From: an uncultured Gammaproteobacteria bacterium
GTDB lineage: Bacteria; Patescibacteriota; Patescibacteriia; Patescibacteriales; WJLG01
Direction of reading: 5' to 3'
Length of the DNA: 64,000 bases
Assembly (NCBI GenBank): GCA_964395625.1
Contig: CAYNAR010000007.1
Coordinates: 2,113-66,112, forward strand
The translations under genes were made by a program, and so were the position numbers. Shown here piece by piece: positions 2,165 to 63,160 of this stretch (position 1 is the first letter of the stretch; the number at the start of each line of letters is the position of its first letter). The notes beneath the pieces are model-generated. The model saw only the letters and a program-made list of their open reading frames with translations. It ran no database searches and was not told the origin of the DNA.

Positions 2165-4267
2165 ATGTCTAATTTGGATTTCGTTTTCAAGCCGAAGAGC
2201 ATCGCTATCGTGGGCGCTTCGACCAAAGAGGGGAATGTCGGTAACGACATTGTTAAGAATTTGGTTCGTCAGGGTTTTGTCGGTGAGGTTTTTCCGATTA
2301 ATCCTAAAGCTGAAGAGTTGTATGGAGTGAAATGCTACCCGTCTTTGACCGCCGTCGAAAAGAAGATCGATTTGATGGTCGTCGTCGTTCCGGCTGTGGC
2401 TGTGCCTGATGTCTTGGAAGAGGGCGGTAAACTCGGTATTGGCGGTGCTGTCATCATTTCCGCCGGTTTCAAGGAGACCGGAAACCATGAACTCGAAGAG
2501 AAGATCAAGGAGGTTTGCGCTAAATACGATATCGCCATGGTCGGCCCGAACTGCTTGGGCGTAATCAATCCGGATTTATCCATGAACGCTTCCTTCGCCG
2601 CTACTTTGCCTGGCAAGGGAAGCATCGCTTTCATCTCGCAGTCCGGCGCTCTTTGCACCGCCGTTTTGGATAGAGCCAAGTCTATGGGAATCGGCTTTTC
2701 TAAATTCATAAGCGTCGGCAATAAGGCTTCTTCCGACGAGGAGACTATCTTGGAATATTTGGAAAGAGATAAAGAGACTAGCGCCATCGGCGTCTATGCC
2801 GAATCCTTGACTAAGGGTGGCGAATTGATTGAGAAGATTCGTCGCATCAGCGTCGAGCCGAATCCGAAACCGATAATTTTTCTAAAGTCCGGACGCACGA
2901 GCGCCGGTGCTAACGCCAGCGCCTCCCATACCGGAGCTTTGGCCGGCAACGATGCCGCTTATAGCGCCTTGTTCCGTCAGAGTTTGGCTATTCGCGCCGA
3001 GAACGTCACAGAACTTTTCGACTTCTTGAATATATTCGCCAACAACGATTTGAAGCCGGCTCGCCGCTTGGGAATCGTCACTAACGCCGGAGGTCCTGGC
3101 GTGCTTTCCGTCGACGCCGCCGTCGAATGCGGTTTGGAATTGGCCAAGATGGAAGAGCAGAACGTCAACGAATTAGCTTCCTTGTTACCACCGGCCGCTA
3201 GCGCCAAGAATCCTGTCGACGTCTTGGGCGATGCCAAGGCCGATCGCTATTCGATCGCTTTGGAGAATGTCTTGGGCGATCCGAATGTCGATTCCGCCAT
3301 CGTCATCTTGACCCCGCAATCCGTCACCGAGGTCGAAGCGACAGCCAAGATGGTCGTCGAGGCCAAGAATAAGTTCAATAAACCCTTGGCCGCCGTGTTT
3401 ATGGGCGAGGATTTGGTTAAGCCGGGCATAGAGATTCTAAAGGATGGCGGTGTGGCCTCTTATCCGAGTCCGGAACAGGCCGTTAAGTCCTTGGCGGCTT
3501 TAGCTGATTTCTATGATAATTCCCAGAGAAAATACGAGGCCGGAAAAGGTTTCGACGATATCGATAAAGAGGCTGTGGCCAAGATTTTCGCCGAGGCTCG
3601 CGCTCAAGGCCAATTGGCTTTCCCAGAGGCTCGCGCCACTGCGGTTTTGGAAGCCTATGGTTTTCCGGTTTTGAAGACCAATATCGCCCATAGTCGCGCC
3701 GAGGCCGAAGAGATGGCTGCCAAGATCAATACGATTATGGTTTTAAAGATCGTCTCTCCTGACATCTTGCACAAGAGTGACGCCGGCGGAGTCATGCTCA
3801 ACATCATGCCGGAGCAGGTCGGAGAAAAATACGACGAGATGATGGAGCGCGTGGCCAAGAATTGCCCGACCGCCAAATTGGAGGGCGTCATGCTTCGCGA
3901 GATGGTCGTCGATCCGGGCGTGGAAATGATTTTGGGCTCATTCAAAGAACCTTCTTTGGGTCAGACTATTATGGTCGGTTTGGGTGGTATCTATGTCGAA
4001 ATATTGAAGGATGTTTCCTTCGGCTTGAATCCGATCGGTCCAGAGGACGCCGCTTCCATGTTGGAGAATTTGCGCTCTAAGAAGATTCTGGACGGTGCTC
4101 GCGGAGCCAAAGCCGCCGACAAAGGAAAAATCATCGAGTGTCTCTTGCGTTTGTCGCAACTCCTTTCCGACTTCCCGGAAATAAAAGAAATGGATATCAA
4201 TCCGCTTTTGGCCATGGAGAATGGCAAGGGCGCCAAGGTTTTGGACGCTCGTATCGTGATTGAATAA
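2165..4267 (+). CDS. acetyl-CoA synthetase (ADP-forming), fused alpha/beta type
   Basis: N-terminal CoA-binding Rossmann segment ([16 protein letters not shown]), a succinyl-CoA-ligase-like middle and a C-terminal ATP-grasp region. 700 aa. Confidence 0.8.
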
Positions 4268-4280
4268 TTTAAATAAAAAT

Positions 4281-6569
4281 ATGACAAAAAGTAAAAAGGT
4301 TAAGAAGTCTGTCGCTAAGAAATGCGACTGTACTTGCTGCACTTGTTCCCCGATGTCCAAGGAAGGCGTCCTTTTGAACAAGCTTGATGTCAACGGTTAC
4401 ATCAAGAAAAACATCAAACCGTACAATGGTAAGGCCGACTTCTTGTGCGGACCTTCCGACAAGACTAAGAATCTTTGGGAGAAAGCCAAAGGTCTCTTGG
4501 CTCAGGAAATGAAGAATAAGGGTGTCTTGAAGATAGACAATGTCACCGTGTCTTCCATAACCAGCCACTCGGCCGGTTATATCGACCAAGAGTTAGAAAC
4601 GATCGTCGGTTTCCAGACTGATGAGCCACTCAAGAGAGGCATTAAGCCTTTTGGCGGTGTTCGTGTCGTCGAAAAGTCTTGCGAGGAGAACGGCGTCAAA
4701 TTGGATCCGAAGGTTTCGGAGATTTTCACCAAATATCGCAAGACCCATAACGACGGCGTCTTCGATGCCTACACCGAGACCATGCGCGTCTTGCGCAAGA
4801 CCGGAACTTTGACCGGTTTGCCTGATGCCTACGCCCGCGGTCGCATCATCGGCGATTATCGTCGCGCCGCTTTGTATGGTATCGATTTCATCATCGGCAC
4901 CAAAGAGGACGATAAGGCTAAATTGGATAAAGAGGAGTGGAGTGAGGAGTTGATCCGCTTGCGTGAGGATATCAGCGAACAGATCAAGGCCTTGAACGAT
5001 ATCAAGATCATGGCTCAGTCCTATGGCTTCGACATCTCTGGTCCGGCTTTGACCGCTCGTGAAGCTATCCAATGGACATACTTCGCCTATTTGGCGGCTT
5101 TGAAAGAGCAGGATGGCGCCGCTATGAGCTTGGGCAGTGTCAGTAGTTTCTTTGATATATATATTGAAAGAGATATCAAGGCCGGCATTTTGACCGAAGA
5201 GGAGGCTCAGGAATTGGTCGACCAATTCGTCATGAAGTTGCGCCTCATCCGTCATTTGCGCGCCGACGAGTACAATCAGCTTTTTGCCGGCGACCCGACT
5301 TGGCTTACCGAGTCTTTGGGCGGTATGATGTCCGACGGACGTCATAAGGTCACCAAGACTTCCTATCGTTTCTTACAGACTTTGTATAATTTGGGACCTT
5401 CACCGGAGCCGAATATCACCGTTCTGTGGTCGAAAGATTTGCCCGAGACTTTCAAGAGATTCTGCGCCAAAGTCTCCGTCGAGACATCTTCCATACAATA
5501 TGAGAACGATGATATCATGCGCGAGGCCGGCGATTGCGACGATTACGGCATCAGCTGTTGCGTCTCTCGCTTGTCCTTGGGCAAGGAGATGCAATATTTC
5601 GGCGCTCGTTGCAACGGAGTGAAGGCTTTGCTCCTGGCGATCAACGGCGGAGTCGACGAGATGACCGGCTTGAAGATAATGGATGGGATAAAACCGTCCA
5701 AGACCAAGACCCTCTCTTACGAGGCTGTGATGGCCGAATTCAAGAAGAGCGTCTCTTTCTTGGCCAGAGAATACGTCAAGACGATGAACGCCATCCATTG
5801 GATGCACGATAAGTACTACTACGAACGCGCTCAGATGGCTTTCGTCGATAGCGACGTGAAACGCATCGTGGCCTTCGGCTTGGCCGGACTTTCCGTAGCC
5901 GCCGATTCCTTGTCCGCCATCAAATACGCCAAGGTCTATCCGAAGCGCGACGAAAAGGGTATCGCCGTCGATTTCGAAGTGAAAGGCGACTTCCCTAAAT
6001 ACGGCAATAACGACAAGCGCGTCGACGACATCGCCAAGATGTTGGTGAAGATGTTCATCACCGAACTACGTAAGCACTGGATATATCGCGAAGCCTTCCC
6101 GACTCTTTCCATATTGACCATCACTTCCAATGTGGTCTATGGCAAAAAGACCGGCGCGACACCGGATGGTCGTAAAGCCGGCGTCCCTTTCGCCCCGGGA
6201 GCCAATCCGATGCACGGACGCGACACCAACGGCGCTATCGCTTCGCTCAATTCCGTCGCCAAGCTCTCTTATGACGATGCGCGCGACGGTATCTCCAACA
6301 CCTTCTCGATCACCCCGAATACCTTGGGTGCGACCGACGAAGAGAGGACCGGCAACCTAGTCGCTTTGCTTTCCGGATACTTCGCCAAAGGCGCCCATCA
6401 CCTCAATGTCAACGTGCTCAATAAAGAGACTTTGAAGGATGCCATGGAACATCCGGAGAAATATCCGCAATTGACGATCCGCGTCTCCGGCTATGCCGTG
6501 AACTTCGTCCGTCTGTCTCGCGAACAACAACAAGAAGTGTTGTCCAGGACATTCTTTGAATCGATGTAA
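4281..6569 (+). CDS. pflB: pyruvate formate-lyase (glycyl radical enzyme)
   Basis: C-terminal glycyl-radical motif RVSGYAVNF and active-site CC (GISCCVS). The first ATG is at 4281; the track start at 4260 is a TTG. The N-terminus has an unusual Lys/Cys-rich extension. Confidence 0.9.
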
Positions 6570-6580
6570 TAATCTCAGAC

Positions 6581-6612
6581 AAAACCCCGACCTCAATGGT
6601 CGGGGTTTTGCT
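6581..6612 (+). terminator. rho-independent terminator after pflB
   Basis: AAAACCCCGACC / GGTCGGGGTTTT forms a perfect 12-bp stem with loop TCAAT. Confidence 0.85.
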
Positions 6613-6642
6613 ATGAAAATCCATACGAGAGTTTGTTGTCGG

Positions 6643-6743
6643 AAGTGGTAAATTATCTTGGCAGCTATTATGATTGTTAGTAGGATATTTAAGAAAAAAA
6701 TGATTTATTATTAATAAAAAGTTAAAAACGCTGAAAGTAAAGA
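6643..6743 (+). repeat. decayed duplicate of the 3' end of the HUH transposase-like gene (homologous to 9576-9668)
   Basis: A 20-bp block TTAGTAGGATATTTAAGAAA is identical at 6677-6696 and 9613-9632. Flanking blocks also match (GAAGTGG, TGATTTATTAT, AAAACGCT, AAAGTAAAGA). The copy at 6643 has frame-breaking indels. Confidence 0.7.
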
Positions 6744-6852
6744 GTTAACTACGGCACAATACTAATAACTAAATTAATACTTGATATGTATTTGAAATAA
6801 TGCTAAGGTTTATTGAAATAATTATTATTTTAGTATTTTTTGTTTTGAATAA

Positions 6853-7027
6853 ATAAAAAAGAAGATAAATAGAAAAAAATTTGTCTGGGCGTTGTTGATC
6901 CTGCGACGACCTTAATAAAGTTTAGTTAATGTGCTTTTCCTTGTGTCTTGGTTGTTTTGTTTACGGCACAAGTGTACATCTGTGTGCTTATGCAGAGAGT
7001 GAAATCGCTGTTTATCTTCTTTTTTAT
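6853..7027 (+). ncRNA. candidate retron msr-msd non-coding RNA, bracketed by a2/a1-like inverted repeats
   Basis: Perfect 17-bp inverted repeat: 6853-6869 ATAAAAAAGAAGATAAA and 7011-7027 TTTATCTTCTTTTTTAT. It extends to 20 bp with one G-U. GC-rich hairpins at 6887-6911 and 6940-6972 lie inside. The 3' arm overlaps the RT ATG. Confidence 0.5.
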
Positions 7028-8180
7028 GGATCTCAAATTGATTGCAGAGGATAATGTTTTAATTGAAAAATTTAAAAAACTTAGTAGTAGGGATGATGTT
7101 GCTGATATGCTGGAAGTTAGTTTAAAAACTTTGAATTTTTTTCTCTATATAAACAAGAGGAAAAATTATAAGAGTTTTTCAATTAAGAAAAAAAATGGTG
7201 GTGAGAGAATTATCTTGGCACCGGTTTCATCTTTAAAAATAATACAGAAAAAATTGTATTATATTTTAAGTTTAGTGTATACAAATCCAAGACCATCTAT
7301 CCATGGTTTTTTATCTGAAAAAAGTATTATTACTAATGCCTCTGAGCATGTAAGGAAGAATTTGATTTTAAATGTGGATTTGGAAAATTTTTTTGGGACT
7401 ATTACTTTTCCTAGGGTTTTTGGTCTTTTAAAAAAGCCGCCATATAATGTTTCCGAAAAAGCCGCAGTCGTTTTGGCTCAGATATGTACACATGAAGGTG
7501 TTCTGCCTCAGGGTGCTCCAACTTCACCGATTATATCAAATATGATACTTTCAAGAATGGATCGGGAACTTCAGTCTTTGGCTAGAGAGAATAGTTGTTA
7601 TTATACTAGATATGCAGATGATATAACTTTTTCAACTACTCAGCGATTAATTTCTAAAGAAATTGTAGATTATGATAATACTGGTAAGTTTAGGCTTGGT
7701 CTAGGGTTGATTAATGTTATAAATAAAAATAAGTTTAAAATTAATTCTGACAAGATTAAATTTAATAACAAAAGACAAAGACAGGAGGTGACCGGGTTGA
7801 TCGTTAATAAAAAAGTTAATATTAAGCGAGGCTTTATTAGACAAGTTAGAGCAATGCTCCATGCTCTTTATAAATTTGGAAAGAAAGATGCTGAGAGGGA
7901 GTATTATGAAAAATACGTTTTTAATAAAAACACCGGACCATTTACCAGAAATAGAAATTTTTTAGAAGTTGTTAAGGGTAAATTAAATTTTATAAAAATG
8001 GTTAAGGGTTTTTCCGATCCGCTTTATGTTAAATTAGCTAAGAAGTTTAACACGATTTATGGTTCAGAGGCTTTAAAATATTTTGATTTAGGGAAAGTAA
8101 TTTTAGTTTTAAGTAATGAGGATGATTTAAAAAAACCAGAAGATATTAAGGAGTCAACGCAGGGAACGGGATTTTTTTAG
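7026..8180 (+). CDS. retron-type reverse transcriptase
   Basis: Motifs: KKKNGGERIILAP, ITNASEHV (NAxxH), LNVDLENFF, LPQGAPTSP, YTRYADDITFS (YADD at 7611-7622) and QEVTGLIVNKK (VTG). Start taken at MDLK (7026) because the 6948 TTG extension would run through the structured ncRNA. The frame ends ...QGTGFF then TAG on a T7 run. Confidence 0.85.
   Translation: MDLKLIAEDNVLIEKFKKLSSRDDVADMLEVSLKTLNFFLYINKRKNYKSFSIKKKNGGERIILAPVSSLKIIQKKLYYILSLVYTNPRPSIHGFLSEKSIITNASEHVRKNLILNVDLENFFGTITFPRVFGLLKKPPYNVSEKAAVVLAQICTHEGVLPQGAPTSPIISNMILSRMDRELQSLARENSCYYTRYADDITFSTTQRLISKEIVDYDNTGKFRLGLGLINVINKNKFKINSDKIKFNNKRQRQEVTGLIVNKKVNIKRGFIRQVRAMLHALYKFGKKDAEREYYEKYVFNKNTGPFTRNRNFLEVVKGKLNFIKMVKGFSDPLYVKLAKKFNTIYGSEALKYFDLGKVILVLSNEDDLKKPEDIKESTQGTGFF
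8172..8178 (+). other. T7 homopolymer at the RT/protease frame junction (candidate -1 slippage site or indel)
   Basis: Sequence is GGA TTT TTT TAG. A -1 shift or one extra T gives ...GTGFF-LVDYGFVTCWHV... The protease frame is open from 8150. Confidence 0.6.
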
Positions 8181-8194
8181 TCGATTATGGATTT

Positions 8195-8659
8195 GTGACA
8201 TGTTGGCATGTTTGGGATTCTAATATTAAGCCAACGGCATTTAGATATGATAATTTTACCAAGAAAAATACTTTAACACAGACAACAGAAAAACATGAGA
8301 GTATTGATTTAGTTGTTTTGTCGGTAGACGGCTTAAAATTGCAAAAAGATGATTTTTTGAAGATTGGAAAGACTGACAGCGTTAAAATTGGAGAGGCTGT
8401 TAAATGCTATGGTTTTGGTGGATACAGTAATGGGTGCTTACCAGTTATTGTAGAATCACAAATAGATAGCATGAAAAGTATTTCTTCGGTGAAGTATTTT
8501 GTCGTTGGCGGAAATATTCGTGGAGGGCAAAGTGGGGCTCCGGTTTTAAATAAAAACAATGAGGTTATTGGAGTTTTGGTAAAAAGTATTAATGCAGGCA
8601 ATGAAGAAAATTTAGTTATATCAATAGATGCATTAAAGTTTTTGAAAAAAATAAATTAA
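8195..8659 (+). CDS. trypsin-like (S1/Trypsin_2-type) serine protease domain, probably the C-terminal part of an RT-protease fusion
   Basis: Triad: His in TCWHV (8207-8209), Asp in SIDLVVL (8306-8308), Ser in GGQSGAPV (8531-8533). The expected N-terminal GTGFF strand sits in the RT frame. The track start is a GTG with no SD. Confidence 0.75.
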   Translation: MTCWHVWDSNIKPTAFRYDNFTKKNTLTQTTEKHESIDLVVLSVDGLKLQKDDFLKIGKTDSVKIGEAVKCYGFGGYSNGCLPVIVESQIDSMKSISSVKYFVVGGNIRGGQSGAPVLNKNNEVIGVLVKSINAGNEENLVISIDALKFLKKIN

Positions 8660-8685
8660 TCTTTTCGTGTTTTTTATTTTCCCAT

Positions 8686-8703
8686 AACTCTTTTAACTCT
8701 TTT
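8686..8703 (+). repeat. tandem 9-mer AACTCTTTT x2 abutting the left inverted repeat
   Basis: Copies at 8686-8694 and 8695-8703 are identical and lie just before the left inverted repeat GGGGTCAGGTCT (8705-8716). Confidence 0.6.
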
Positions 8704-8704
8704 A

Positions 8705-8716
8705 GGGGTCAGGTCT
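8705..8716. repeat. left 12-bp inverted repeat GGGGTCAGGTCT flanking the HUH gene
   Basis: Exact reverse complement of 9666-9677. Confidence 0.75.
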
Positions 8717-8792
8717 GGAATTAAGACTTTTTTGTTTCAAAACAAGGCAGTTAGTGATAAAATAGAATTATAAAAAATTAAAGGAGGGGAAA

Positions 8793-9659
8793 ATGGCTAG
8801 ACCAATAAGGATACAATATCCTGGTGCTTTTTATCATATAATGACTCGGGGCAATAGACGCTCTAGTATATTTGATTCCACGGAAGACTATCAAGATTTT
8901 TTGATAGTCTTTTTTAATATCATAAAGAGATATAATTGGACTTGCTACGCCTACTGTTTAATGCCTAATCATTATCATTTGTTAATCAGAACTAATGATG
9001 CCAATTTATCTTTAGGCATGAGGCAGTTGAATGGTGTTTACACCCAGAACTATAATATTAGACACAAAAGAGTTGGTCATCTTTTTCAAGGAAGATTTAA
9101 ATCAATATTGGTAGAGGAAGAAAATTATAAATATCAATTAATAAGATATATAGCCTTGAATCCATTGAGAGCCAATATTGTTCAGGTGATAGAAGGCTGG
9201 AAATGGAATAGTTGTTTAGAGGTGATGAATAAAATAGCCATGACCGGCTGTGTGGAGATAAAGGAAATACTCTCTAATTTTGATCAGGACGAAAATAAAG
9301 CCAGGGAGGTGTTTTTAAATTATTTAACAAATAAAATAGAAGATGAGAATAGTCTAAGTAGTCTGAAAGGGGGTATAATATTAGGCTCGGTTGAATTTGT
9401 AGATAAAATAAAAGGCTATTTAAGAATTAAAGAGAAAGAATTAGAAATACCAGTAAAAGAAAGATTGGTTTCCAGGCCATCTCTGGAAGAGCTGTTTGAT
9501 GACAAAATAATAACAAGAGAGACAAGAAATAGGGCAATATATGTGGCGCACGTTGGCTATGGATATTTACTCTCAGAAGTGGCAAATTATTTAGGTATTC
9601 ACTATACTACTATTAGTAGGATATTTAAGAAAGAAAATGATTTATTATCAAAACGCTAA
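8793..9659 (+). CDS. HUH/Y1 transposase-like protein (IS200/RAYT-like) with a C-terminal HTH
   Basis: HUH motif in MPNHYHLLIRT and the catalytic-Tyr region RYIALNPLRA. C-terminal HTH-like segment is LSEVANYLGIHYTTISRIFKK. Strong RBS AAAGGAGGGGAAA. Confidence 0.75.
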   Translation: MARPIRIQYPGAFYHIMTRGNRRSSIFDSTEDYQDFLIVFFNIIKRYNWTCYAYCLMPNHYHLLIRTNDANLSLGMRQLNGVYTQNYNIRHKRVGHLFQGRFKSILVEEENYKYQLIRYIALNPLRANIVQVIEGWKWNSCLEVMNKIAMTGCVEIKEILSNFDQDENKAREVFLNYLTNKIEDENSLSSLKGGIILGSVEFVDKIKGYLRIKEKELEIPVKERLVSRPSLEELFDDKIITRETRNRAIYVAHVGYGYLLSEVANYLGIHYTTISRIFKKENDLLSKR

Positions 9660-9665
9660 AAGTAA

Positions 9666-9677
9666 AGACCTGACCCC
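9666..9677. repeat. right 12-bp inverted repeat AGACCTGACCCC
   Basis: Reverse complement of 8705-8716, starting 7 bp after the gene's stop codon. Confidence 0.75.
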
Positions 9678-9847
9678 AATATCATTAAGTGAGCAGATTA
9701 GTAATTATTTTACTAAAATTCTAAAATCTGCCAATCCTACCAAGGCACCAAACTATTGGACAATGCCAAAAAAAGATAGTAGAAATGCCCCATCAAAAAC
9801 TAATTACACAACAAAACCAGTTGATTTAAAAGTTATAATAAAAAGTA

Positions 9848-10198
9848 ATGAAAAATAATTTTTTGATTAAAAATAAATTAAAATATGCGCTGGGTGTGAC
9901 ACTGTTTGTTATATTCGTGCTATTTTCTTTTTGGCTTACTAGTTTAAATGATTCGGGAATAGGCGGATTAATAAAACAAGGCAATGAGGTTGTTGAAAAA
10001 ATTGAAGATTTTAGAAAGATAAGTGGCCGTTTGCCCGATTCCTTAAAGGAAATTGGTGTATACGAATCCGAACAAGGCCCAATTTTTTATGAGAAAAGAG
10101 GTGATTCCGAATATGCAATATTTTTTAGTATAGGTTTTGATGAGATGAAAGCATATTATTCCGATTCAAAAAAATGGGAAGATTCTTATCGGAAATAG
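9848..10198 (+). CDS. hypothetical membrane-anchored small protein
   Basis: 116-aa ORF with one N-terminal hydrophobic helix (ALGVTLFVIFVLFSFWL). Protein-like composition. No recognisable motif. Confidence 0.45.
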   Translation: MKNNFLIKNKLKYALGVTLFVIFVLFSFWLTSLNDSGIGGLIKQGNEVVEKIEDFRKISGRLPDSLKEIGVYESEQGPIFYEKRGDSEYAIFFSIGFDEMKAYYSDSKKWEDSYRK

Positions 10199-10548
10199 AA
10201 CTTAATTAAATAATGATTTCCCTTTCCTATAATGTATAATTATATAGGAGCATGTAGGTTTATATTTTGTTTTCTCCTCCCGCATTCGCGCTTAGTTTTT
10301 CTGATGAATAGACGATTGTTCCATTAAGATATGATCAAAATGTTTACGTCGGTGGAGTTTAGCCTCGGGCGGGCATACTCGATTTGTTTCTCACATTGAA
10401 GCTGGGCCACTGGTGATCGCACTCTGATATTTCGTGGCGCGGGTCCTTTTCCCTCTAGCGAAAGAGAGAGGATGAAAATTTGTTACTGGCAAGGTTGTCA
10501 GGTAAAAATACGAATGTAAAGAAAATATTAGTTATTTGTTTTATTTTC

Positions 10549-10647: not shown

Positions 10648-10923
10648 ATGATTGCTTTTCGGGAGAATATTCGAGAGATTGTCGGAGTTGTCGGTAATTT
10701 TCCCTGTCGCGACGCTACTTGTGTCGGCGTGGTGGAGGTTTCCGAAAATAATTCTGTACCGATGATAGACCATCGTGGCCTATCGGAAGTCTATCCCTGT
10801 CTTGTCTGCGGATTGATGCATACGGAGGAGGGCGCGCATATCCATGATCAGGAAAATAGTCTCGGGTCTTATTGGATCGATAATAATATCTTCAATAAGT
10901 CGATCGAGAAGATACGGGCTTAG
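10648..10923 (+). CDS. small Cys-containing hypothetical protein (possible zinc ribbon)
   Basis: Strong RBS AAAGGAGG. Has CRDATC ... CLVCG cysteine pairs. 91 aa. Confidence 0.5.
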   Translation: MIAFRENIREIVGVVGNFPCRDATCVGVVEVSENNSVPMIDHRGLSEVYPCLVCGLMHTEEGAHIHDQENSLGSYWIDNNIFNKSIEKIRA

Positions 10924-34905: not shown

Positions 34906-37900
34906 ATGACCAATAGGCTTAGAAAAATATTACTATCCGCCTTTTTACTGATCGGTTTATTCGCGATCGGCAATTCCGTTTTGGCTGCCGCCGATGTCGG
35001 AATGGGAGGGTTCGGCGCCGTCACGCAGCTAAGCAATACGGACCCTCGTACTGTAGTCGCCAATGTCATACGTATTATTTTAGGATTTTTGGGCGTGATC
35101 GCCATAGGTTTGATAATCTATGCCGGAGCTATCTGGATGCTTTCTGGCGGCAATGAGAAGAATATCGATAAAGCCAAAAAGATATTGGTGAGCTCTGTTA
35201 TTGGTCTAATAATAATATTAGCTTCCTTTGGTATAACCACGTTTTTGTTGAATAGTATTTTGAATGCAACTGGCACCGGTTCTGGTACCGGTTCCGGGCC
35301 GGGTGGCGTTATAGTTCCGCCTGGTGGAGGACCAGGCTCTTCTTGCGATGGCATTACACTGACTCCGCTTTGCGAAGCGGACGATAGTCTTTGTGGTTCT
35401 GGTCTTTATTGTAATCCTGGTACTTGTACATGTACTGTTGGTGGCGGTATTGGTGATCCGTGTGATTCTGATGTGGCTTTGGCCGATTGTCAGGCTAGTG
35501 GGGCTATGTGTATGCCTGGTCTTTCTTGTAATACAACTACTTGTCTTTGTGAGAGTGGTTCCGGTGTAGGTATAAATTGCGATTCCGATGTCGCAGCCGG
35601 ATGTCAAGCCTCTGATGCTATATGTTCCAATCTCTTGACTTGCGACAATGGTACTTGTACTTGTGAAGAGAGGCCTTTGATACAATGGATTAGTCCGCAA
35701 GGAGGTTTTTGCGATGATTTTCCGAATCAAGTCTGTTTAAATGATTCGGATTGTTCTTCGGGAACGTGCAATGTATCCACTCCTAATGCAGCTTCTGGTA
35801 ATATAATAACCATCATGGGCCGATATTTTGGGACAACCGTCGGTCAGGTCAATTTTTGGGATGGTGCCGGTTTTACGATTCCCGGCGTTTTACCATCCAC
35901 CATCAATTCTCAGTGTAGTTCTTTCTGGAGCGATGATCAGATAATGATGGTCGTTCCTGTTGGCGCTGTCTCCGGTCCTGTGCAAGTCGTAAGATCTGAT
36001 CTTTTCTCCGATACGACCAATGATGCTCATGGCACGGTTATAGACGATTTAAGAGTTAATGCGATATCTCGCCCCGGTCTTTGCAGGATTGATCCTGATA
36101 ATGGGTATTTAAACGATCCGGTGGCTTTACACGGCGTTAATTTCCCCACAGTCTTGTCAGAGGCTCGTTTTGGTAATTATCACTCCTTTGTTTCCGGTAC
36201 CAACTCCGTTTTTTATACCGCGACCTTAGCTAACACTCTTACCCCTAATATAAACTCGGGGAAAACTACAGCCTTCGTGTCAGGTTCGGCGGGGGAGCTT
36301 AGTAACTATGTCAGATTTGGTAAGAATAGCGAGGATGATCGTGGTCCATATATCGTTTCTTTTTCGCCGACATCTGGTGCCCCTGGTCAATATATAACAA
36401 TATATGGGTCTGGTTTCGGTTCGAGTAGGGGTAGTAGTGCCGTTTATTTTGGTGATGAGACTGGCTATGAAGTCGATTATTCGTTTCCAACGATTTGCGA
36501 TGATAGTGTCTGGTCTGATAGTCAGGTTATAGTCAAGGCGCCTTCGACCGCTCCAGATGGTAATTATACGATAACCATGGTAATAGGTGCTCGTACCATA
36601 GACACATCGGCTTTGGCTACTAATCAGTTCAATTTAAACAGGTCTTTGTCTTTGGCGCCTTCCCTCTGTAAGATATCTCCTCCGATAGGTGATGTGGGGG
36701 TAGAGGTTTCCGTTTGGGGTGAGTATTTCGACACACTTAACGCTTCGAGCCGTGTTAGATTTTATAACGATAAAGACGCTGTCGGCACAAATATAGTTTT
36801 CTGGAATCAAGACCAGAGTTTCAACTCCGGTTCTAGACCGGATAGAGCCGACGTTTTAGTCCCGGCCGGAACGATAACAGGCCCAGTCAAGGTCGGTAAA
36901 GGTGCGGGTATGCTTTTTGGAAATGCTTTGAACTTTCAAGTAGGTAGTTGTTTGGAGGCGCCTGATCCGAATAATGCCTGTTCTCCGGAGATTTGCTGTC
37001 CGGAGGGAACTCCGGAAGCCGGGCGCTGTGTCGCTACGACGAACGATTGTTTCGCCGATATAAAGTCCAGTGTCTATGAGTGGGATTTCAATACGGGCAT
37101 AACGACGTCTCCGTCCGGTCCGTCCACGCCTTTCTTTAGCTGCACGGAAAGAAGTCGTTTGCTAAGTCTTTGCGATAACGTGATATGTCCGAATTCGGCT
37201 GGTGAATGCTCTCCTTATGATAATGTTTTCTCAACCATGGAGAATGTTGGTAAGAGCTGTGTCTATAATTGTGACAATGTCGGCTCTTGCGGTGTTGGTG
37301 GTTGCACATACAACAGTTCTTTGGATGTCTGCGTGGCTAATGTCGGCACTTCTTGCAGTTTGCCGATTGCCGCGACTAATGTTTCGGGTGCCACGGTCGA
37401 AGCTTTCTGCGAGCAATATCAGGGTAACAACAGACGAGTTATCTATTTGAGTGGAAACGAGGGTTGTCCTTCCGGTTGGATTAAGGCTTCTTTACCTTCT
37501 GATGGTGGGGTGGAATTAGTTTGTGTCGATCCTTCTTCCACTTGCAATGTTTGTAGTACCGGTTTTGTATGTACTCCCGACAACGCTCCTGTCCCTAGCG
37601 GTATTTGCATAGCTCCTGGAGATATTTGCCCGTCCGGATCGGCTTGTCAGTCTGATAATCGTTGCAAAAAGCTAGTAGCTGATGAGTGTCAGTGTTGTTG
37701 TCGTAAAGCCAATGCCAACCAAGATTGTTGTTATCCTTTGACCTGTGCCGGTACTTGTGGAAGTGATAAGGCTACCGATACCGGGACTTACGGATCTTGC
37801 AGTGGTTGTCGTATAGAGGTTGGTGGCGTTGTCAATCAAGCGGCTTCGGATGCTGCCTGCAATTGTTCAGGTTCTTTCGGTAAATATTGCGATACTAGCA

Positions 37901-40728
37901 TTGACGTGAATGCCGATGGCGTTGCCGATGGTGTTTGTAACGACTGCGCTCAATTAGCTAATAATAATTCTTGCACCAATCATAGCGCTTCGTGCTGTGT
38001 CGACGCGACAAGAAGTGATGTTTGTACTGGAAGAAGGTACGGTTCCGGTGGTAGTGATGTGTTTGATTTGGTGGTTAGCGGTGGCACGGCTTATTGCGGT
38101 TACTATTCTTGTTCGACCAATAACACGACTTGCGATGGAACCGCCGATGTAGGCCCTTTCGCGTCCGGTGTCAATTTCTTTAAAAAATTCTCGGATTGTT
38201 CTAATAGATGTAACCCACCAACGCCTTTTGGTGTCTCTTGCGTGAATACCGACAACACGGCTTGTGCGGCTTCTATCTGTTCTCTTGGTGCTTCATGTCG
38301 CAATGATTCAGGGGCCTCTCTCTTTCCGGATTGTGGTGTTTGCTGTTGCGACCCTTCCAACGATCAGTGTTCTTTAATAGGAAATCCTAATTTACGCTGT
38401 GAAGCCGATAAGAGCCCGTGCGGTGGAGCTAATCGAGGTCTTTGCTGCGGTTGTAATTCCAATTCCGAATGCGTCGCCTCTCCGGCGTTGCCGATAGCGA
38501 CCGGTTGCGGTCTGGATGGTTGTTGCAGAGCTAGGCCGGAAATAATAAACACCGCCCCGCAAGACGATCAGAGTAATGTCTGTACTAATATCGAAATACA
38601 GGCCATATCCAGTGTTGCGATGGATAGTGGTAGTGTCACCGGTAATATAATAGTCGTCGGCGAGTACGTAACACCATGCCCGGAGGGAACGGTTTACTTA
38701 TCTTTGAATCAAGACTCGCAAAATACTAATAGCTTGTTGAGGGGAGTCAAAGTCGCATGGAATTCCATTAAGAGTATCTTTAATAAGGTTATGGGCTCCG
38801 ATGTCCTAGCTAGCGACCCTCCGTTGGCTTTCATGAATTATTGTGCCGTTCCTGGTGTCGTAGCCGTCGAACATGTCGATCCGGAAGACGAGAGCCAGCC
38901 ATCGATATTGAAATTTCGTCCTTCAAAAATTCTCGATACCGACAGAAAGTACTTTGTCATAGTCAAGGGTGATGAGAATCTCGATAACACTAATGGAGTA
39001 AAGAGTTCTTGGGGTATCGGAATGAATACTCCTGTCGGGGCTATAGCCGGAATCAGGACTGATAATTCTTCGACCTTTAACGGAACTAGCTATGCCGGTT
39101 CTTTCATATGGTCTTTTAGAACTCGCCCTAATAATGGTGGCAATAAGGGTATTTGCGACATAGATCATGTTGCTATAACCCCTAAATCTTATTTATTTAA
39201 TAGGTTGGAACAAGACTTGAACGAAGATGATAATAATCCGTCCGGCAAGACTTTTGACACTGTTAGAGATATAGATAAAAAGTTCACGGCCAGGGCGTTG
39301 AGTTCCAGAGGTGAAGTTTTATCCTCTGCTACCGGCTATTCATGGAATTGGAGTTGGAACGTGGATGATGTTGCTGTTGTGAGGTTTATAAATCCTGCGC
39401 CATTCGCCGTCGACAGTGGCGAACAATTAATCTCGGCTTTTGACAATATAACCGATCGCAAGGCTAAAGTTACCGCTACCGTCAATCTCATAGACTCGAC
39501 TTTGTCTTCTGCTGGAAATGGTCAATCGGCGACAGCTGAAGTTTATGTGTTTAGGTGCGCTAATCCTTGGCCAGGTTTTGTCGCTGGGACTTGGCGTCCT
39601 TGGAGAGATAATCCGGATGCTATGAATCCCTATTGTGTCGGTGGCACTTGTATGGATATGGGTTATGAATTGTATTATTGCAGGGATAGTGGTTCGGAGG
39701 GTACGGCCGATGATTTGCCGGTGATCTCTTCTGGAACAACCGTTGGCAGTGGAGTATCCACGGATGTTTTGAAGGAATCATATTTCTTCAGACAAGCTCC
39801 GCCCGTAGTCGAAGGGGTTGATTTTATGGTGGAACCTGTTCCAAGTGGTGGGGAAGTGCGACTTAATTGGGATGCCGTAGTAGATCCAGCTGGCGAGCAG
39901 GTCGTTTCCAAATACAATATTTATTATAGTCAAAAATCTGGCGCACCGTACGCTTTTTCTATTTCTGTGCCAGTAGCGGATGCGCCGTATATATCTTCTA
40001 ATTCTCCAGTGTCGGTAACCGGCCTGGATAAAACTAAGGATTATTATTTTGCCATAACAGCAGTATATGATAGTGGAGAGGAAAGTACTTATTCTAAAGA
40101 GGTTGCAGTCAGGCCAGCTGATTCCTTCCCGCCAGCGAGTCCTATTAACATCATTGCTGAGGCGGGCAGGAAAGACGTGGTGGTTAATTCGTCGATTTCC
40201 GCTAGTGATTGGAGTTCGACAGTGCAGGAGACTATTAGCGCCAAAGTTAGTTTTTCGCTTTCTCCTAATGAGTTATTGAAGCATTTAAGGACTTTTGATT
40301 TGCGATGGGGGACTGCGATAGATGATTATCCGAATATTGTTTCTGTGCCGGCGAGAGAGGCTTTGGTTAATGGTGAAGATTTGAAGGTTGTTGGTGATTT
40401 TTCTGCTGGAACCCCTTATTATTTCATAGTTTCGGCAACGCGACTGGATAATTCTTATTCCGAAACTTCAGGAGTTGTTAAAGTTGTCTTTGATTCCGGT
40501 GGTGCAACAAGTATCGAGCCAATGGTTGCTGATGATGTTGGTGATTTTGAAATAGCGATTCCCTCTGGGACTATAAAAGTTTCTTGGCCCCCCAATACCG
40601 ATGATGCTGTAAAGTATAATCTTTATTGGGGCGCTAATCATGCCAGTTATGGCGAGAAAATAGAGGTCGGGGGGCGCGATGCTTTATCGGGGGGGGATGG
40701 AGAAGGAAGCCTCTTTTTCTTATGGTAA
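34906..40728 (+). CDS. giant surface protein 2, N-terminal 1,940 codons (reading frame broken at a G8 tract)
   Basis: Has the same pilin-like N-terminus and three tandem ~35-aa Cys-rich modules. Also has IPT/TIG-like domains (ISPQGG..., FSPTSGAPGQYITIYGSGFG, ISPPIGDVGVEVSVWGEYF) and FN3-like domains near the end. Confidence 0.8.
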   Translation: MTNRLRKILLSAFLLIGLFAIGNSVLAAADVGMGGFGAVTQLSNTDPRTVVANVIRIILGFLGVIAIGLIIYAGAIWMLSGGNEKNIDKAKKILVSSVIGLIIILASFGITTFLLNSILNATGTGSGTGSGPGGVIVPPGGGPGSSCDGITLTPLCEADDSLCGSGLYCNPGTCTCTVGGGIGDPCDSDVALADCQASGAMCMPGLSCNTTTCLCESGSGVGINCDSDVAAGCQASDAICSNLLTCDNGTCTCEERPLIQWISPQGGFCDDFPNQVCLNDSDCSSGTCNVSTPNAASGNIITIMGRYFGTTVGQVNFWDGAGFTIPGVLPSTINSQCSSFWSDDQIMMVVPVGAVSGPVQVVRSDLFSDTTNDAHGTVIDDLRVNAISRPGLCRIDPDNGYLNDPVALHGVNFPTVLSEARFGNYHSFVSGTNSVFYTATLANTLTPNINSGKTTAFVSGSAGELSNYVRFGKNSEDDRGPYIVSFSPTSGAPGQYITIYGSGFGSSRGSSAVYFGDETGYEVDYSFPTICDDSVWSDSQVIVKAPSTAPDGNYTITMVIGARTIDTSALATNQFNLNRSLSLAPSLCKISPPIGDVGVEVSVWGEYFDTLNASSRVRFYNDKDAVGTNIVFWNQDQSFNSGSRPDRADVLVPAGTITGPVKVGKGAGMLFGNALNFQVGSCLEAPDPNNACSPEICCPEGTPEAGRCVATTNDCFADIKSSVYEWDFNTGITTSPSGPSTPFFSCTERSRLLSLCDNVICPNSAGECSPYDNVFSTMENVGKSCVYNCDNVGSCGVGGCTYNSSLDVCVANVGTSCSLPIAATNVSGATVEAFCEQYQGNNRRVIYLSGNEGCPSGWIKASLPSDGGVELVCVDPSSTCNVCSTGFVCTPDNAPVPSGICIAPGDICPSGSACQSDNRCKKLVADECQCCCRKANANQDCCYPLTCAGTCGSDKATDTGTYGSCSGCRIEVGGVVNQAASDAACNCSGSFGKYCDTSIDVNADGVADGVCNDCAQLANNNSCTNHSASCCVDATRSDVCTGRRYGSGGSDVFDLVVSGGTAYCGYYSCSTNNTTCDGTADVGPFASGVNFFKKFSDCSNRCNPPTPFGVSCVNTDNTACAASICSLGASCRNDSGASLFPDCGVCCCDPSNDQCSLIGNPNLRCEADKSPCGGANRGLCCGCNSNSECVASPALPIATGCGLDGCCRARPEIINTAPQDDQSNVCTNIEIQAISSVAMDSGSVTGNIIVVGEYVTPCPEGTVYLSLNQDSQNTNSLLRGVKVAWNSIKSIFNKVMGSDVLASDPPLAFMNYCAVPGVVAVEHVDPEDESQPSILKFRPSKILDTDRKYFVIVKGDENLDNTNGVKSSWGIGMNTPVGAIAGIRTDNSSTFNGTSYAGSFIWSFRTRPNNGGNKGICDIDHVAITPKSYLFNRLEQDLNEDDNNPSGKTFDTVRDIDKKFTARALSSRGEVLSSATGYSWNWSWNVDDVAVVRFINPAPFAVDSGEQLISAFDNITDRKAKVTATVNLIDSTLSSAGNGQSATAEVYVFRCANPWPGFVAGTWRPWRDNPDAMNPYCVGGTCMDMGYELYYCRDSGSEGTADDLPVISSGTTVGSGVSTDVLKESYFFRQAPPVVEGVDFMVEPVPSGGEVRLNWDAVVDPAGEQVVSKYNIYYSQKSGAPYAFSISVPVADAPYISSNSPVSVTGLDKTKDYYFAITAVYDSGEESTYSKEVAVRPADSFPPASPINIIAEAGRKDVVVNSSISASDWSSTVQETISAKVSFSLSPNELLKHLRTFDLRWGTAIDDYPNIVSVPAREALVNGEDLKVVGDFSAGTPYYFIVSATRLDNSYSETSGVVKVVFDSGGATSIEPMVADDVGDFEIAIPSGTIKVSWPPNTDDAVKYNLYWGANHASYGEKIEVGGRDALSGGDGEGSLFFLW

Positions 40729-41665
40729 TACAGCAGGAAGATTTTTTATAGCCGTTTCAGCTGTGGATGCTTCCGGGAATGAAAGTGCTTTTTCTGATGA
40801 GATAATCGTTATTCCTAGCCAATCTAGTTATACTTTTCGCAATGCCTTGGCTAATGTGGATTTCGAGTCCGGTGCTATCGGCGGATTACCTGCGTATTGG
40901 TCAAGGGCGACACAGGTCAGGTCTTCTGTCGGCATAAGTGACGCTTTTTCTTTTTCCGGAAATCAAAGCCTTCGCTTGTACCAAGCGCCGAATATACCAT
41001 ACCCCGGCGTTTGTGGAAGCGATTTGAATGATAGAGTAGCCCCAGCTTATGAAGCCTATCCTTTTTCCAGTTACCTGACCTACAACGGTTCTAATTGTAC
41101 TTTTTCAAGCACTCTCGATTGCAATGCCGGCGGACCATGCATAGTTTCGAATGGCAGTTCCTTGCCATGGCCCTATACTAACAGGGTTATGTGGGAATCT
41201 TTGTCTTATAATGTGTCTAATTTGCCTTGGGAGGTTGGAGAGGATTATTTAGTAGCTTTTTATTATAAGGGAAATTTAGCCGCTAGTACTAGACCGATAT
41301 TGAATTTCGATTTGGGTTGGGGTGCTCAATGTAGGGGGGTAATAGCGGGAGGGTGTTCGGCTTGGGGTGCCGGATGGTTCGTCTGTCCTGACAATTCGTC
41401 GGCATGTTGTCGATATCCATTACAGAGGGATTGTTATCCGAGTCTTTACATGCCGGTTATCCCTGCTGGTAATTACAACAGTGGACCTTATGATGGTTGG
41501 AACTTGTATTTCGATACTTTTACATACACTGAGGATCTGGCGGGTATATACGACATTTCTAATAATTTGCGCAATATGATAGGTCTTTCTATCGGGTATA
41601 ACAATACTGGAGCCGGAACTGATTTTTATGTCGATGATTTTATCGTAGCGAAGAAAGTTAAATAA
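40679..41665 (+). CDS. C-terminal continuation of giant surface protein 2 (separate ORF only because of the G8 frame break)
   Basis: The translation completes the FN3 domain begun in the previous frame: ...YNLYWG...SGG | MEKEASFSYGNTAGRFFIAVSAVDASGNESAFS. No SD of its own. Confidence 0.7.
   Translation: MLYRGGMEKEASFSYGNTAGRFFIAVSAVDASGNESAFSDEIIVIPSQSSYTFRNALANVDFESGAIGGLPAYWSRATQVRSSVGISDAFSFSGNQSLRLYQAPNIPYPGVCGSDLNDRVAPAYEAYPFSSYLTYNGSNCTFSSTLDCNAGGPCIVSNGSSLPWPYTNRVMWESLSYNVSNLPWEVGEDYLVAFYYKGNLAASTRPILNFDLGWGAQCRGVIAGGCSAWGAGWFVCPDNSSACCRYPLQRDCYPSLYMPVIPAGNYNSGPYDGWNLYFDTFTYTEDLAGIYDISNNLRNMIGLSIGYNNTGAGTDFYVDDFIVAKKVK
40689..40696 (+). repeat. G8 homopolymer at the frame break of the giant gene
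   Basis: Sequence is TCG GGG GGG GAT. With seven G the two ORFs fuse into one 2,252-codon frame. A G6 run lies at 40669-40674. Confidence 0.8.
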
Positions 41666-61892: not shown

Positions 61893-61982
61893 GGAGAGTT
61901 CGCATAGTGGTCTAGTGCACTCGCTTGGAAAGCGGGCAGGGTGTCAAAGCCCTCGAGGGTTCAAATCCCTCACTCTCCGCCA
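61893..61982 (+). tRNA. tRNA-Ser (anticodon GGA), CCA encoded
   Basis: Acceptor GGAGAGT/ACTCTCC. Anticodon stem CTCGC/GCGGG with loop TTGGAAA. Long variable arm AGGG..CCCT. T-arm GAGGG-TTCAAAT-CCCTC. Discriminator G followed by CCA. Confidence 0.9.
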
Positions 61983-61994
61983 GTAAAAAGATGA

Positions 61995-62016
61995 AACGCC
62001 CACAAGGCGTTTTTTC
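61995..62016 (+). terminator. terminator after tRNA-Ser
   Basis: AACGCC / GGCGTT stem followed by a T5 run. Confidence 0.65.
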
Positions 62017-62047
62017 TTTTATATTAAGAGAGAAAGAAGCATTTTTA

Positions 62048-63160
62048 TTACCTCGGACAAGCGATATTGACCTCTTGTTTTCGGGGAGTGTTGACCGCCT
62101 GTTGACCAAAAGTTTGAAGCTTGTTCAAAATATCGATCGTATCGTTCAGGACATTCGGCTCAAGATGGGCGTAGCGCATCGTTGTTTGTATTTCGGAATG
62201 GCCTAAGAGCGCTTGAATGCCTTTTAAGGGAGCTCCATGGCTAACAAGTCGGCTTGCGAACGTGTGGCGCAACGTGTGCCATTTCAAGCGCCTTAAACCA
62301 GCTCGCTGGCAGATTCTGACAAGATTATTCAGGCATCTGTTCTGTAATATCGGTTTGCTGGGCTCGATAGTAAAAACGAAGCCTATTCTTTCGTTCTTGG
62401 CCAGAAGCATCTGATAGACTCGGTTAGTCATCGGTATGCGCCTTTCGCGATTGCTTTTCGGGGAGGATATCTGTTTTACTGTGAACGACCTCCTGACCAC
62501 GATCTCGTTTTTCTCGAAGTTTACTGATGGCCAATCAAGCGCCGCTAATTCACCGAGCCTTAGACCGGTATCGACTGACATGATAATCATTTCTCTCCAT
62601 GTTCCGGTAGCCGCGGCAATCAACTCGTTTTCTTCTTCCAAGGTTAAGAAGTCGTATTTATAGGGAGGGACTTTCAGTTTTTGTATTCGAGGTATCTTTT
62701 CGATAAGCTCCCACTCCACTGCCGTGCGCAAACATTTGGATAAGATTGAAGTTAGATTGTTTACGGTTTTGGCCTTTGTTGGTGTTCCCGATCTTGTTAT
62801 TCTTTTTAATTCAGCCGCCTTGAATTCCTCAACTTTTTGATTGGTAATTTCAGAAAGTAAAAGTTTTCCAAAGAAGGGTATTAAGTGCGCGTCTAGGGCG
62901 CTCCTTTTGTGCATCTGCTCGGAAAGCTTGTTGTTGGTCGCGACATAGCAGTCAAACCATTTATTGGCAAAATCCAAAAAAGTCGGAATAGTTTTTTCCT
63001 CCACGTGGTCGTTTATTTTTTCGCCTTTGCTTAATTTAGTCCTTAGCGAAAATTCATAGGCCGTTGCGCCAGTTTTGGAATTTTCAGGACTTCTTAGGCG
63101 ATATCGCCGCCGATTGAAACGGAAATCAGTCCACCAGGTATTTCTAACTTTTCTTGGCAT
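62048..63160 (-). CDS. tyrosine recombinase / phage-type integrase
   Basis: RLGELAALDW (Arg I), HTLRHTFAS (H-x-x-R) and LLGHSEIQTTMRYAH (catalytic Tyr). Confidence 0.9.
   Translation of the reverse strand: MPRKVRNTWWTDFRFNRRRYRLRSPENSKTGATAYEFSLRTKLSKGEKINDHVEEKTIPTFLDFANKWFDCYVATNNKLSEQMHKRSALDAHLIPFFGKLLLSEITNQKVEEFKAAELKRITRSGTPTKAKTVNNLTSILSKCLRTAVEWELIEKIPRIQKLKVPPYKYDFLTLEEENELIAAATGTWREMIIMSVDTGLRLGELAALDWPSVNFEKNEIVVRRSFTVKQISSPKSNRERRIPMTNRVYQMLLAKNERIGFVFTIEPSKPILQNRCLNNLVRICQRAGLRRLKWHTLRHTFASRLVSHGAPLKGIQALLGHSEIQTTMRYAHLEPNVLNDTIDILNKLQTFGQQAVNTPRKQEVNIACPR

Follow-up and report, generated by a model that had tools for sequence, protein, structure and literature searches.

A type XI retron with its protease effector out of frame in a Patescibacteria genome

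Introduction

Is a retron whose reverse transcriptase (RT) and protease effector lie in different reading frames a working module, a regulated gene, or a broken one? The question is posed by a locus on the forward strand at positions 6853-8659 of a 64,000-nt stretch of contig CAYNAR010000007.1 (assembly GCA_964395625.1), here called the window, in whose coordinates all features are given. An earlier note, made from the sequence without database searches, had described the locus as a three-part module of non-coding RNA, RT, and protease. The sequence features that it listed are confirmed, but they do not form a three-gene unit: in canonical type XI retrons, RT and trypsin-like protease form a single fused open reading frame (ORF), which at this locus is interrupted by a -1 frameshift. 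Judged by signature motifs, profile matches, and structural neighbors, the locus is a type XI retron of RT clade 8, the clade of Eco2/Ec67, in a Patescibacteria genome; by descent it is a disrupted member of that type and not an intact one. The reading that we favor, and consider likely, is that of a genuinely disrupted copy with its effector off, either recently inactivated or at best dependent on slippage. Locus coordinates were re-derived by script and by direct reading of the sequence.

Identity of the reverse transcriptase

Type XI retrons are defined by the fusion of an RT to a trypsin-like protease (Mestre et al. 2020, NAR; PMC7736814). The RT ORF of the locus (7026-8180, + strand) encodes 384 aa followed by a TAG stop and contains a Pfam RVT_1 match; in the alignment, its start at 7026 agrees with the starts of its homologues. 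The motif NYKSFSIKKKNGGERIILAP lies near the N-terminus, and the retron signatures NAxxH (region X) and VTG (region Y) accompany the YADD core, as seen in ITNASEHV (N104, H108), NVDLENFF (D118), RYADD (D198, D199), and QEVTGLIVN (T256, G257). Each of these numbered residues is invariant in an alignment (A1) of 34 sequences, namely, the window product and 33 homologues. The motif series with its two signatures and the retron-pattern N-terminus, all claimed by the earlier note, are therefore present as described.

When the two frames are joined, the product matches the PADLOC model RT-Protease_XI at 545 bits (E 4.8e-164; residues 15-538 against profile positions 2-501 of 506), a full-length match that belongs to the frameshift-corrected reading only. 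The runners-up, RT-TIR_XII (417 bits) and RT-Toprim_I-C (371 bits), align to the RT part only, and the remaining retron RT models score 274 bits or less. This is the outcome of the retron-profile check that the earlier note had proposed for the RT, and it agrees with the assignment to type XI of the Mestre classification (PMC7736814), which that note had named.

A locus of this kind could also carry an RT of another class, such as that of a group II intron, a diversity-generating retroelement (DGR), or an Abi/UG system, next to an unrelated inverted repeat contributed by a transposon end or a terminator. The profile scores speak against this: all 25 PADLOC matches listed are to retron RT models, and with NCBIfam the RT part scores 350 bits with the retron TIR family and 338 bits with the Ec67 family, against 59 bits with the group II intron RT and 38 bits with Drt2. 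In a Foldseek search of the PDB, two structures of retron Eco2 rank first (9lm3 and 9i2f; about 350 columns aligned at 33-36% identity), after which come Ec86, Eco7, Ec78, Ec83, and Eco8, and only thereafter group II intron RTs. The RNA hairpin described below is likewise specific to the region 5' of clade-8 retron RTs. We found no point in favor of a non-retron origin, which profile, structure, and RNA-model results effectively refute and whose probability we put close to nil. By profile scores and structural neighbors, the RT thus groups with retron RTs and not with those of group II introns, DGRs, or Abi/UG systems.

Among known systems, type XI retrons share with the locus the NAxxH and VTG signatures, an RNA gene directly upstream of the RT closed by paired a1 and a2 arms, and, once the frameshift is corrected, the full-length profile match. 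They differ in their defining single ORF, which here is split by the -1 frameshift at a run of seven T (T7), and the nearest homologue is just 42-47% identical. The best structural match, Eco2/Ec67 (type I-C, RT-Toprim; PDB 9lm3, 9i2f, 9s1f; 33-36% identity), belongs to the same RT clade and shares the design of RT and effector in one polypeptide; its effector is a Toprim nuclease, as against the protease of this locus. Type XII retrons (RT-TIR) also share the RT clade, with a TIR domain as effector.

The protease and its fusion to the reverse transcriptase

The sequence downstream of the RT frame had been read by the earlier note as an S1-type protease with an intact His/Asp/Ser triad. The domain and the triad stand; what falls is the separate gene, as the protease sequence is a -1 frame continuation of the RT frame. 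A Pfam search, which the same note had proposed for the downstream translation, finds Trypsin_2 at residues 380-517 of the fused reading, and the triad residues H395, D428, and S503, as well as L385, fall in invariant columns of the 34-sequence alignment. The portion encoded at 8177-8659 (+ strand) supplies the rest of the trypsin/HtrA-like serine protease domain, corresponding to residues 385-544 of the fused reading and the stop. With Foldseek, the C-terminal part matches MucD, HtrA1, DegQ, DegS, and DegP, and an AlphaFold2 model of the joined protein (mean predicted local distance difference test score, 88.6) shows an HtrA-like protease fold. In this model, the RT product is already in the protease fold from about residue 355 onward: an earlier barrel strand (359-363) is encoded in the RT frame, and the junction itself falls inside the beta-strand 380-385. 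Judged from this model, the end of the RT frame encodes the first beta-strands of the protease, which is thus no separate gene downstream.

Gene callers give a 154-aa ORF from the GTG at 8195. We considered whether this ORF could complement the RT tail as a split protease and rejected the idea: residues 385-390 are in neither piece, and the first barrel strands are absent from the ORF. The pair of "RT plus small protease" that gene callers will show here is hence not a real two-gene system.

The family is overwhelmingly one of fused proteins. Among 120 homologues listed from a collection of 5.8 billion proteins, 114 combine RT and Trypsin_2 in 514-645 aa, one is a 396-aa product of this same locus, and five are RT-only, with no Trypsin_2 detected by Pfam. 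The distribution of architectures indicates that the RT-protease fusion is the ancestral state. No homologue closer than 42-47% identity was found in this collection or in 185,579 species-representative genomes. In the RT-only lineages related to type XI, as at the locus, the RT is not covalently joined to a protease; in these lineages, however, the protease is gone and separate accessory genes (WYL, DnaB_C) have been taken up, whereas the locus keeps an intact, out-of-frame protease sequence.

A frame break at a run of seven thymines

The RT frame ends in ...QGTGFF-TAG, its stop (8178-8180) lying directly 3' of the T7 run at 8172-8178 (+ strand), where direct reading of the sequence places the frameshift. 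In the zero frame, the break reads GGA TTT TTT TAG; a -1 shift or an eighth T would give G F F L V D. The protease follows in the -1 frame from 8177 as ...LVDYGFVTCWHV, and joining the frames at the T run yields QGTGFFLVDYGFVTCWHV, which aligns without gaps to the family consensus QGTGFMLxGxGLVTCxHV. The first codon past the shift encodes the invariant Leu385. All fused homologues read straight through this junction, and at the locus RT and trypsin-like protease do not form one ORF. The probable account is that a T8 run encoding Phe-Phe-Leu became T7, a one-base deletion that would have separated the protease from the RT.

Homopolymers are the commonest site of indel errors, and another homopolymer-linked break occurs elsewhere in the window. 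Thus, the frameshift could be a sequencing or assembly artefact that hides an intact fused type XI RT-protease. Yet the same T7 site, GGGATTTTTTTAGTCG, occurs in the deposited genome as well as in Logan assemblies made independently from three runs (SRR27710297, SRR16642441, and SRR11845635), which are 99.9-100% identical to the window across the retron in gapless alignments. The recurrence of T7 in the three assemblies makes a random assembly error unlikely, and since these come from separate sequencing runs, the frame break is probably real. We therefore regard the artefact as decidedly improbable.

If the break is real, it could still be put to use. Programmed -1 ribosomal frameshifting or transcriptional slippage at A-TTT-TTT-TAG would leave the retron functional, and the yield of abundant RT with less RT-protease would amount to a built-in control of effector dose. 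The site has the makings of such a device: a homopolymer is followed straight by a zero-frame stop, tRNA-Phe re-pairs perfectly in the -1 frame, the GFFLVD product restores the invariant Leu385, the downstream frame is intact for 161 codons, and T7 is stable in four assemblies. Against this, no stimulatory structure was found downstream of the shift site (8181-8250, z = -0.46), and reading of the sequence by eye revealed no convincing Shine-Dalgarno-like stimulator at the usual spacing. A run of seven T is also short for transcriptional slippage to be efficient. No shift is needed in any of the fused homologues listed, and the slippery T7 with its stop is not echoed in the only other split Patescibacteria copy, which lies at 3001-4606 of contig L044 (Parcubacteria-group genome JACPLU010000002.1) and is broken at a different position. 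There, at a non-slippery position, GKINFVKDG-stop closes the first ORF and MVKGQK opens the second, with ATGGTTAA as their overlap; to judge by its sequence, this overlap looks like translational coupling. With L044 split elsewhere, and with a further Patescibacteria copy (in contig L054, below) preserved as an intact fusion, there is no conserved recoding site, and the best relatives, at 42-47% identity, are too distant for a test of whether the T run is conserved. Hence, we think it unlikely that slippage keeps the retron functional, and the dose control that slippage would bring is equally doubtful.

A second use of the tract would be phase variation, with T7 as the off state and T8 as the on state of a costly abortive-infection effector. 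Homopolymer tracts are classic contingency loci, and the other break in the window, at a run of eight G (G8) in a giant surface-protein gene, would suit a genome in which such tracts vary. T7 is nevertheless the form in all four consensus assemblies, which by their nature cannot show minority alleles, and no 544-aa product of a T8 allele is among the matches listed from the 5.8-billion-protein collection. Phase variation thus also seems to us improbable here. Taken as a whole, the proposition that the T7-TAG junction is a working switch, setting the amount of protease-armed RT by low-level -1 recoding or by T7/T8 phase variation, would be something of a long shot. If it were true, the switch would let an episymbiont with a minimal genome carry a suicidal effector at a tolerable dose, and the locus would be the first functional retron described in Patescibacteria; were slippage the means, a retron effector would be dosed in a new manner.

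Several observations weigh against the preferred reading of a disrupted, effector-off copy. The protease frame remains open over 161 codons in DNA of 30% GC, which suits a recent break and the use of slippage equally. The available copies are all 99.9-100% identical and carry no evolutionary signal by which to tell a recoded gene from a pseudogene. Related samples may underlie the three Logan runs, and a systematic homopolymer error is unlikely but conceivable. The G8 break (40689-40696) might reflect either error-prone homopolymers or slipped-strand variation in this genome. Finally, a literature search returned no paper characterizing the mechanism or defensive activity of any type XI retron.

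The G8 run appears to split one repeat domain of the giant surface protein (>2200 aa; ORFs 34906-40728 and 40679-41665), with YNLYWG...GGRDALSGG in one frame and ...FFIAVSAVDASGNESAFS in the next; a look-up of this break in other assemblies gave no record.

The upstream RNA

The 175 nt that precede and slightly overlap the RT ORF (6853-7027, + strand) have the properties of a retron msr-msd RNA gene, bounded by the outer ends of the a1 and a2 arms. The a1 arm (6853-6872) and the a2 arm (7008-7027), the latter sharing the first two bases of the RT start codon, form an inverted repeat of 20 nt that is 95% complementary, with a helix score above that of all 100 composition-preserving shuffles. 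A 181-nt segment folds at -53 kcal/mol, as against -33.9 +/- 3.7 for shuffles (z = -5.1). The claim of the earlier note that a non-coding segment of 175 nt closed by a long inverted repeat lies upstream of the RT is thereby supported.

The same architecture is found 5' of related retron RTs. The best long-range helix reaches p <= 0.02 in 21 of 33 type XI upstream regions, and in 20 of those 21, the window included, the arms are placed approximately at -130 to -193 and at -54 to +8 from the RT start. The arm sequences vary from locus to locus, being GC-rich in some relatives and AT-rich in others; the AT-rich stem of this locus, which had been thought atypical, therefore falls within the range of a stem whose sequence is free to vary. 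Between the arms, a conserved order is seen: an ATTG motif, a hairpin with the loop (G)TTGATCCTG(C), a variable long hairpin, and the purine-rich motif AAGCGAGAAT before a2. In the window, these correspond to ATTTG (6879-6883), the local form of the ATTG motif that is conserved in the model alignment of 50 loci; to the msr hairpin H1 (6887-6911; 5' strand 6887-6894, loop TTGATCCTG 6895-6903, 3' strand 6904-6911); to a long hairpin of the msd region (6931-6977 in the minimum-free-energy fold), the presumed template of the msDNA (multicopy single-stranded DNA); and to GCAGAGAGTGAAAT (6992-7005), just inside a2, presumably the first region to be templated (all + strand). The family consensus of the last is only roughly AAGCGAGAAT, a purine-rich motif seen by eye near a2 in about 15 related loci. 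The long msd hairpin differs among relatives in both length and sequence.

The first hairpin is the part of the RNA that can be traced most widely, its loop motif GTTGATCCTGCG being kept, with compensatory changes in the stem region, 5' of about 48 related retron RTs. Eight type XI loci served to build a covariance model (R1) of the hairpin region; a search of both strands of 590 kb with this model gave 50 matches at E <= 1, and for 48 of them a related RT follows 95-315 nt downstream in the same orientation. The matched loci include some that PADLOC assigns to RT-Toprim_I-C (L034, L014, and L012) and to RT-TIR_XII (L059, a full-length match to that profile). In an alignment that was itself fitted to the covariance model, 96.4% of the H1 cells are paired, compensatory changes occur in six of six pairs, and the observed values are not attained in any of 500 shuffles. 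A further model, R3, was built from 42 hairpin sites, none of them in the window, and run with filters off; its best match in the 64 kb, on both strands, is 6867-6915 (25.1 bits, E 3.4e-4), with the next best at E 0.25. The locus therefore has an msr hairpin with a GTTGATCCTGCG-type loop 100-300 nt 5' of the RT on the same strand. This bears out the conserved structured region in homologous loci that the earlier note had named as a check. Taken with the closing stem, the covariation argues that the upstream RNA is a conserved retron msr/msd-like element, and the matches in type I-C and XII loci show the msr hairpin motif to be shared across clade 8.

A candidate priming site can be named. In 39 of 41 clade-8 loci, unconstrained folding gives a long-range closing stem that lies just 5' of the conserved TTG; the last base of the stem directly precedes the G of TTG in 12 of these 39. 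In the window, ATTT (6879-6882) is able to pair with AAAT (7002-7005), extending the a1/a2 stem up to G6883, which we infer to be the candidate branching guanosine.

Mestre et al. had found type XI without a recognizable RNA module (PMC7736814), an experimental retron census later reported its non-coding RNAs as validated (PMC10849725), and a 2026 survey using SPIRE still counts type XI among the types without a validated RNA model. The sharing of a covarying msr hairpin and the a1/a2 architecture by types XI, I-C, and XII should make annotation of these RNAs simple. No Rfam family matches the RNA even at E <= 10, and nothing else was hit nearby apart from chance matches and, upstream, the pflB-like gene's terminator. 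In other type I-C loci, the hairpin motif is present as ATTG ... GTTGATCCTGCG, a comparison that does not extend to Eco2's own RNA; type XII retrons carry the motif too.

As a further observation on the motif, ATTGATTTCCGTTGTTGATCCTGCGACGG is nearly unchanged in type I-C, XII, XI, and other clade-8 RT fusions (L002-L081, about 95-315 nt 5' of the RT) and is most uniform in cyanobacteria. A plain MAFFT alignment of whole RNAs (A2) left the a1/a2 arms unalignable, their sequences being different, and helix tests for each locus, folding, and the hairpin covariance model were used instead; the seed alignments A3 and A4 contained misaligned rows (L005, L031, and L010) and were replaced by the gapless A5. 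A second RNA-model match in L044 (6222-6270) lies inside a 231-aa ORF with no RT following and was treated as a chance match.

A model for the intact and the broken retron

In Eco2, a trimer caged by msDNA is freed by the phage protein DenB and cleaves tRNA (PMC12916289). For the present locus, this mechanism serves as an analogy only. By extension from Eco2 and other retrons, the RT of an intact type XI system would bind the msr hairpin, prime from the 2'-OH of a guanosine at the inner end of the a1/a2 stem (G6883 in the window), and copy the msd region into branched msDNA, and the resulting msDNA-RNA scaffold would keep the fused effector inactive. On the same analogy with Eco2, interference of a phage with the msDNA would free the protease to cut cellular or phage proteins and so abort the infection.

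As encoded, the locus would yield as its main product the complete 384-aa RT without a working effector, and a full-length RT-protease would arise only through rare -1 slippage at T7 or reversion to T8. We read the locus as effector-off since the break takes away the toxic effector and spares the RT and the RNA. If the comparison with toxin/antitoxin systems is apt, decay that removes the effector and leaves RT and RNA in place is the harmless course for such a system. The locus in its present form should thus be harmless and is probably non-defensive.

Host, genomic setting, and relatives in Patescibacteria

The host is a member of the Patescibacteria. Named relatives of the LigA encoded in the window (56-69% identity) come almost all from Patescibacteria, Parcubacteria, Falkowbacteria, and Magasanikbacteria genomes, two records being otherwise named (a Nanoarchaeia archaeon and an unclassified bacterium), and the window has a one-strand gene order and large proteins with a domain like that of type IV secretion system (T4SS) pilins. 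The LigA relatives agree with the Patescibacteria-type host that had been surmised before. The 2026 SPIRE survey, with retrons reported from 13 bacterial phyla, does not mention this phylum by name in its text, and our literature search yielded no paper describing retrons in Patescibacteria.

Type XI genes related to this one are already on record in two other Patescibacteria genomes, which makes the host of the window less unique than had been implied. The one in L044, introduced above for its split frame, is a type XI retron with a clear a1/a2 RNA. The other, at 2992-4599 of L054 (a 951-kb contig of the Saccharimonadales genome DATELH010000002.1), is an intact 535-aa fused RT-protease, upstream of which neither an msr hairpin match nor a clear a1/a2 was found. 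The L054 gene adjoins a divergent 531-aa gene whose product, from its sequence alone, looks like a large serine recombinase. The range of type XI retrons therefore now includes Patescibacteria, with three examples: the window, the Parcubacteria genome, and the Saccharimonadales genome. The defense systems of this phylum are little studied; the locus leaves the current understanding of retrons unchanged.

The retron lies in a stretch (approximately 6610-10300) that stands out by its GC content of 25-36% against 45-58% in the flanks, in agreement with the AT-rich island of the earlier note, with a pflB-like gene on one side and a nuclease gene on the other. By GC content, the stretch takes in the retron, a transposase-like gene, and small ORFs; these neighbors are context and are not counted as retron components. 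Relatives that are closest by their pflB-like gene, at 75% identity, have the same upstream gene order and no retron downstream, which fits an accessory region; these relatives are too distant to define the ends of an insertion. A metagenome scan with the downstream nuclease gene, as a test for excision of the island, found no relatives.

Several smaller features of the neighborhood deserve mention. The AT-rich stretch begins at a strong GC-rich hairpin with a following T run (AAAACCCCGACC...GGTCGGGGTTTT), located right after the pflB-like gene at 6581-6609; from its sequence, this hairpin is likely a bidirectional terminator. Directly 3' of the retron, at 8793-9659, lies a gene for a 288-aa protein resembling Y1_Tnp and REP_Tyr_transpos (the tyrosine transposases associated with repetitive extragenic palindromes), with a score just under the NCBIfam cutoff, and small ORFs (9637-10198 and 10648-10923) follow it. 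When the window is compared with the Logan contig L001 (SRR27710297), 80 of the 82 differences cluster in the acetyl-CoA synthetase and pflB-like genes (3700-5900), and positions 5900-10297, with the retron, are identical; this pattern suggests either that strains are mixed in the conserved genes or that the island has spread recently. Toward the end of the window (61893-63160), a phage-type integrase gene lies directly after a tRNA-Ser (GGA) gene and on the other strand, an arrangement that may be the edge of an integrated element.

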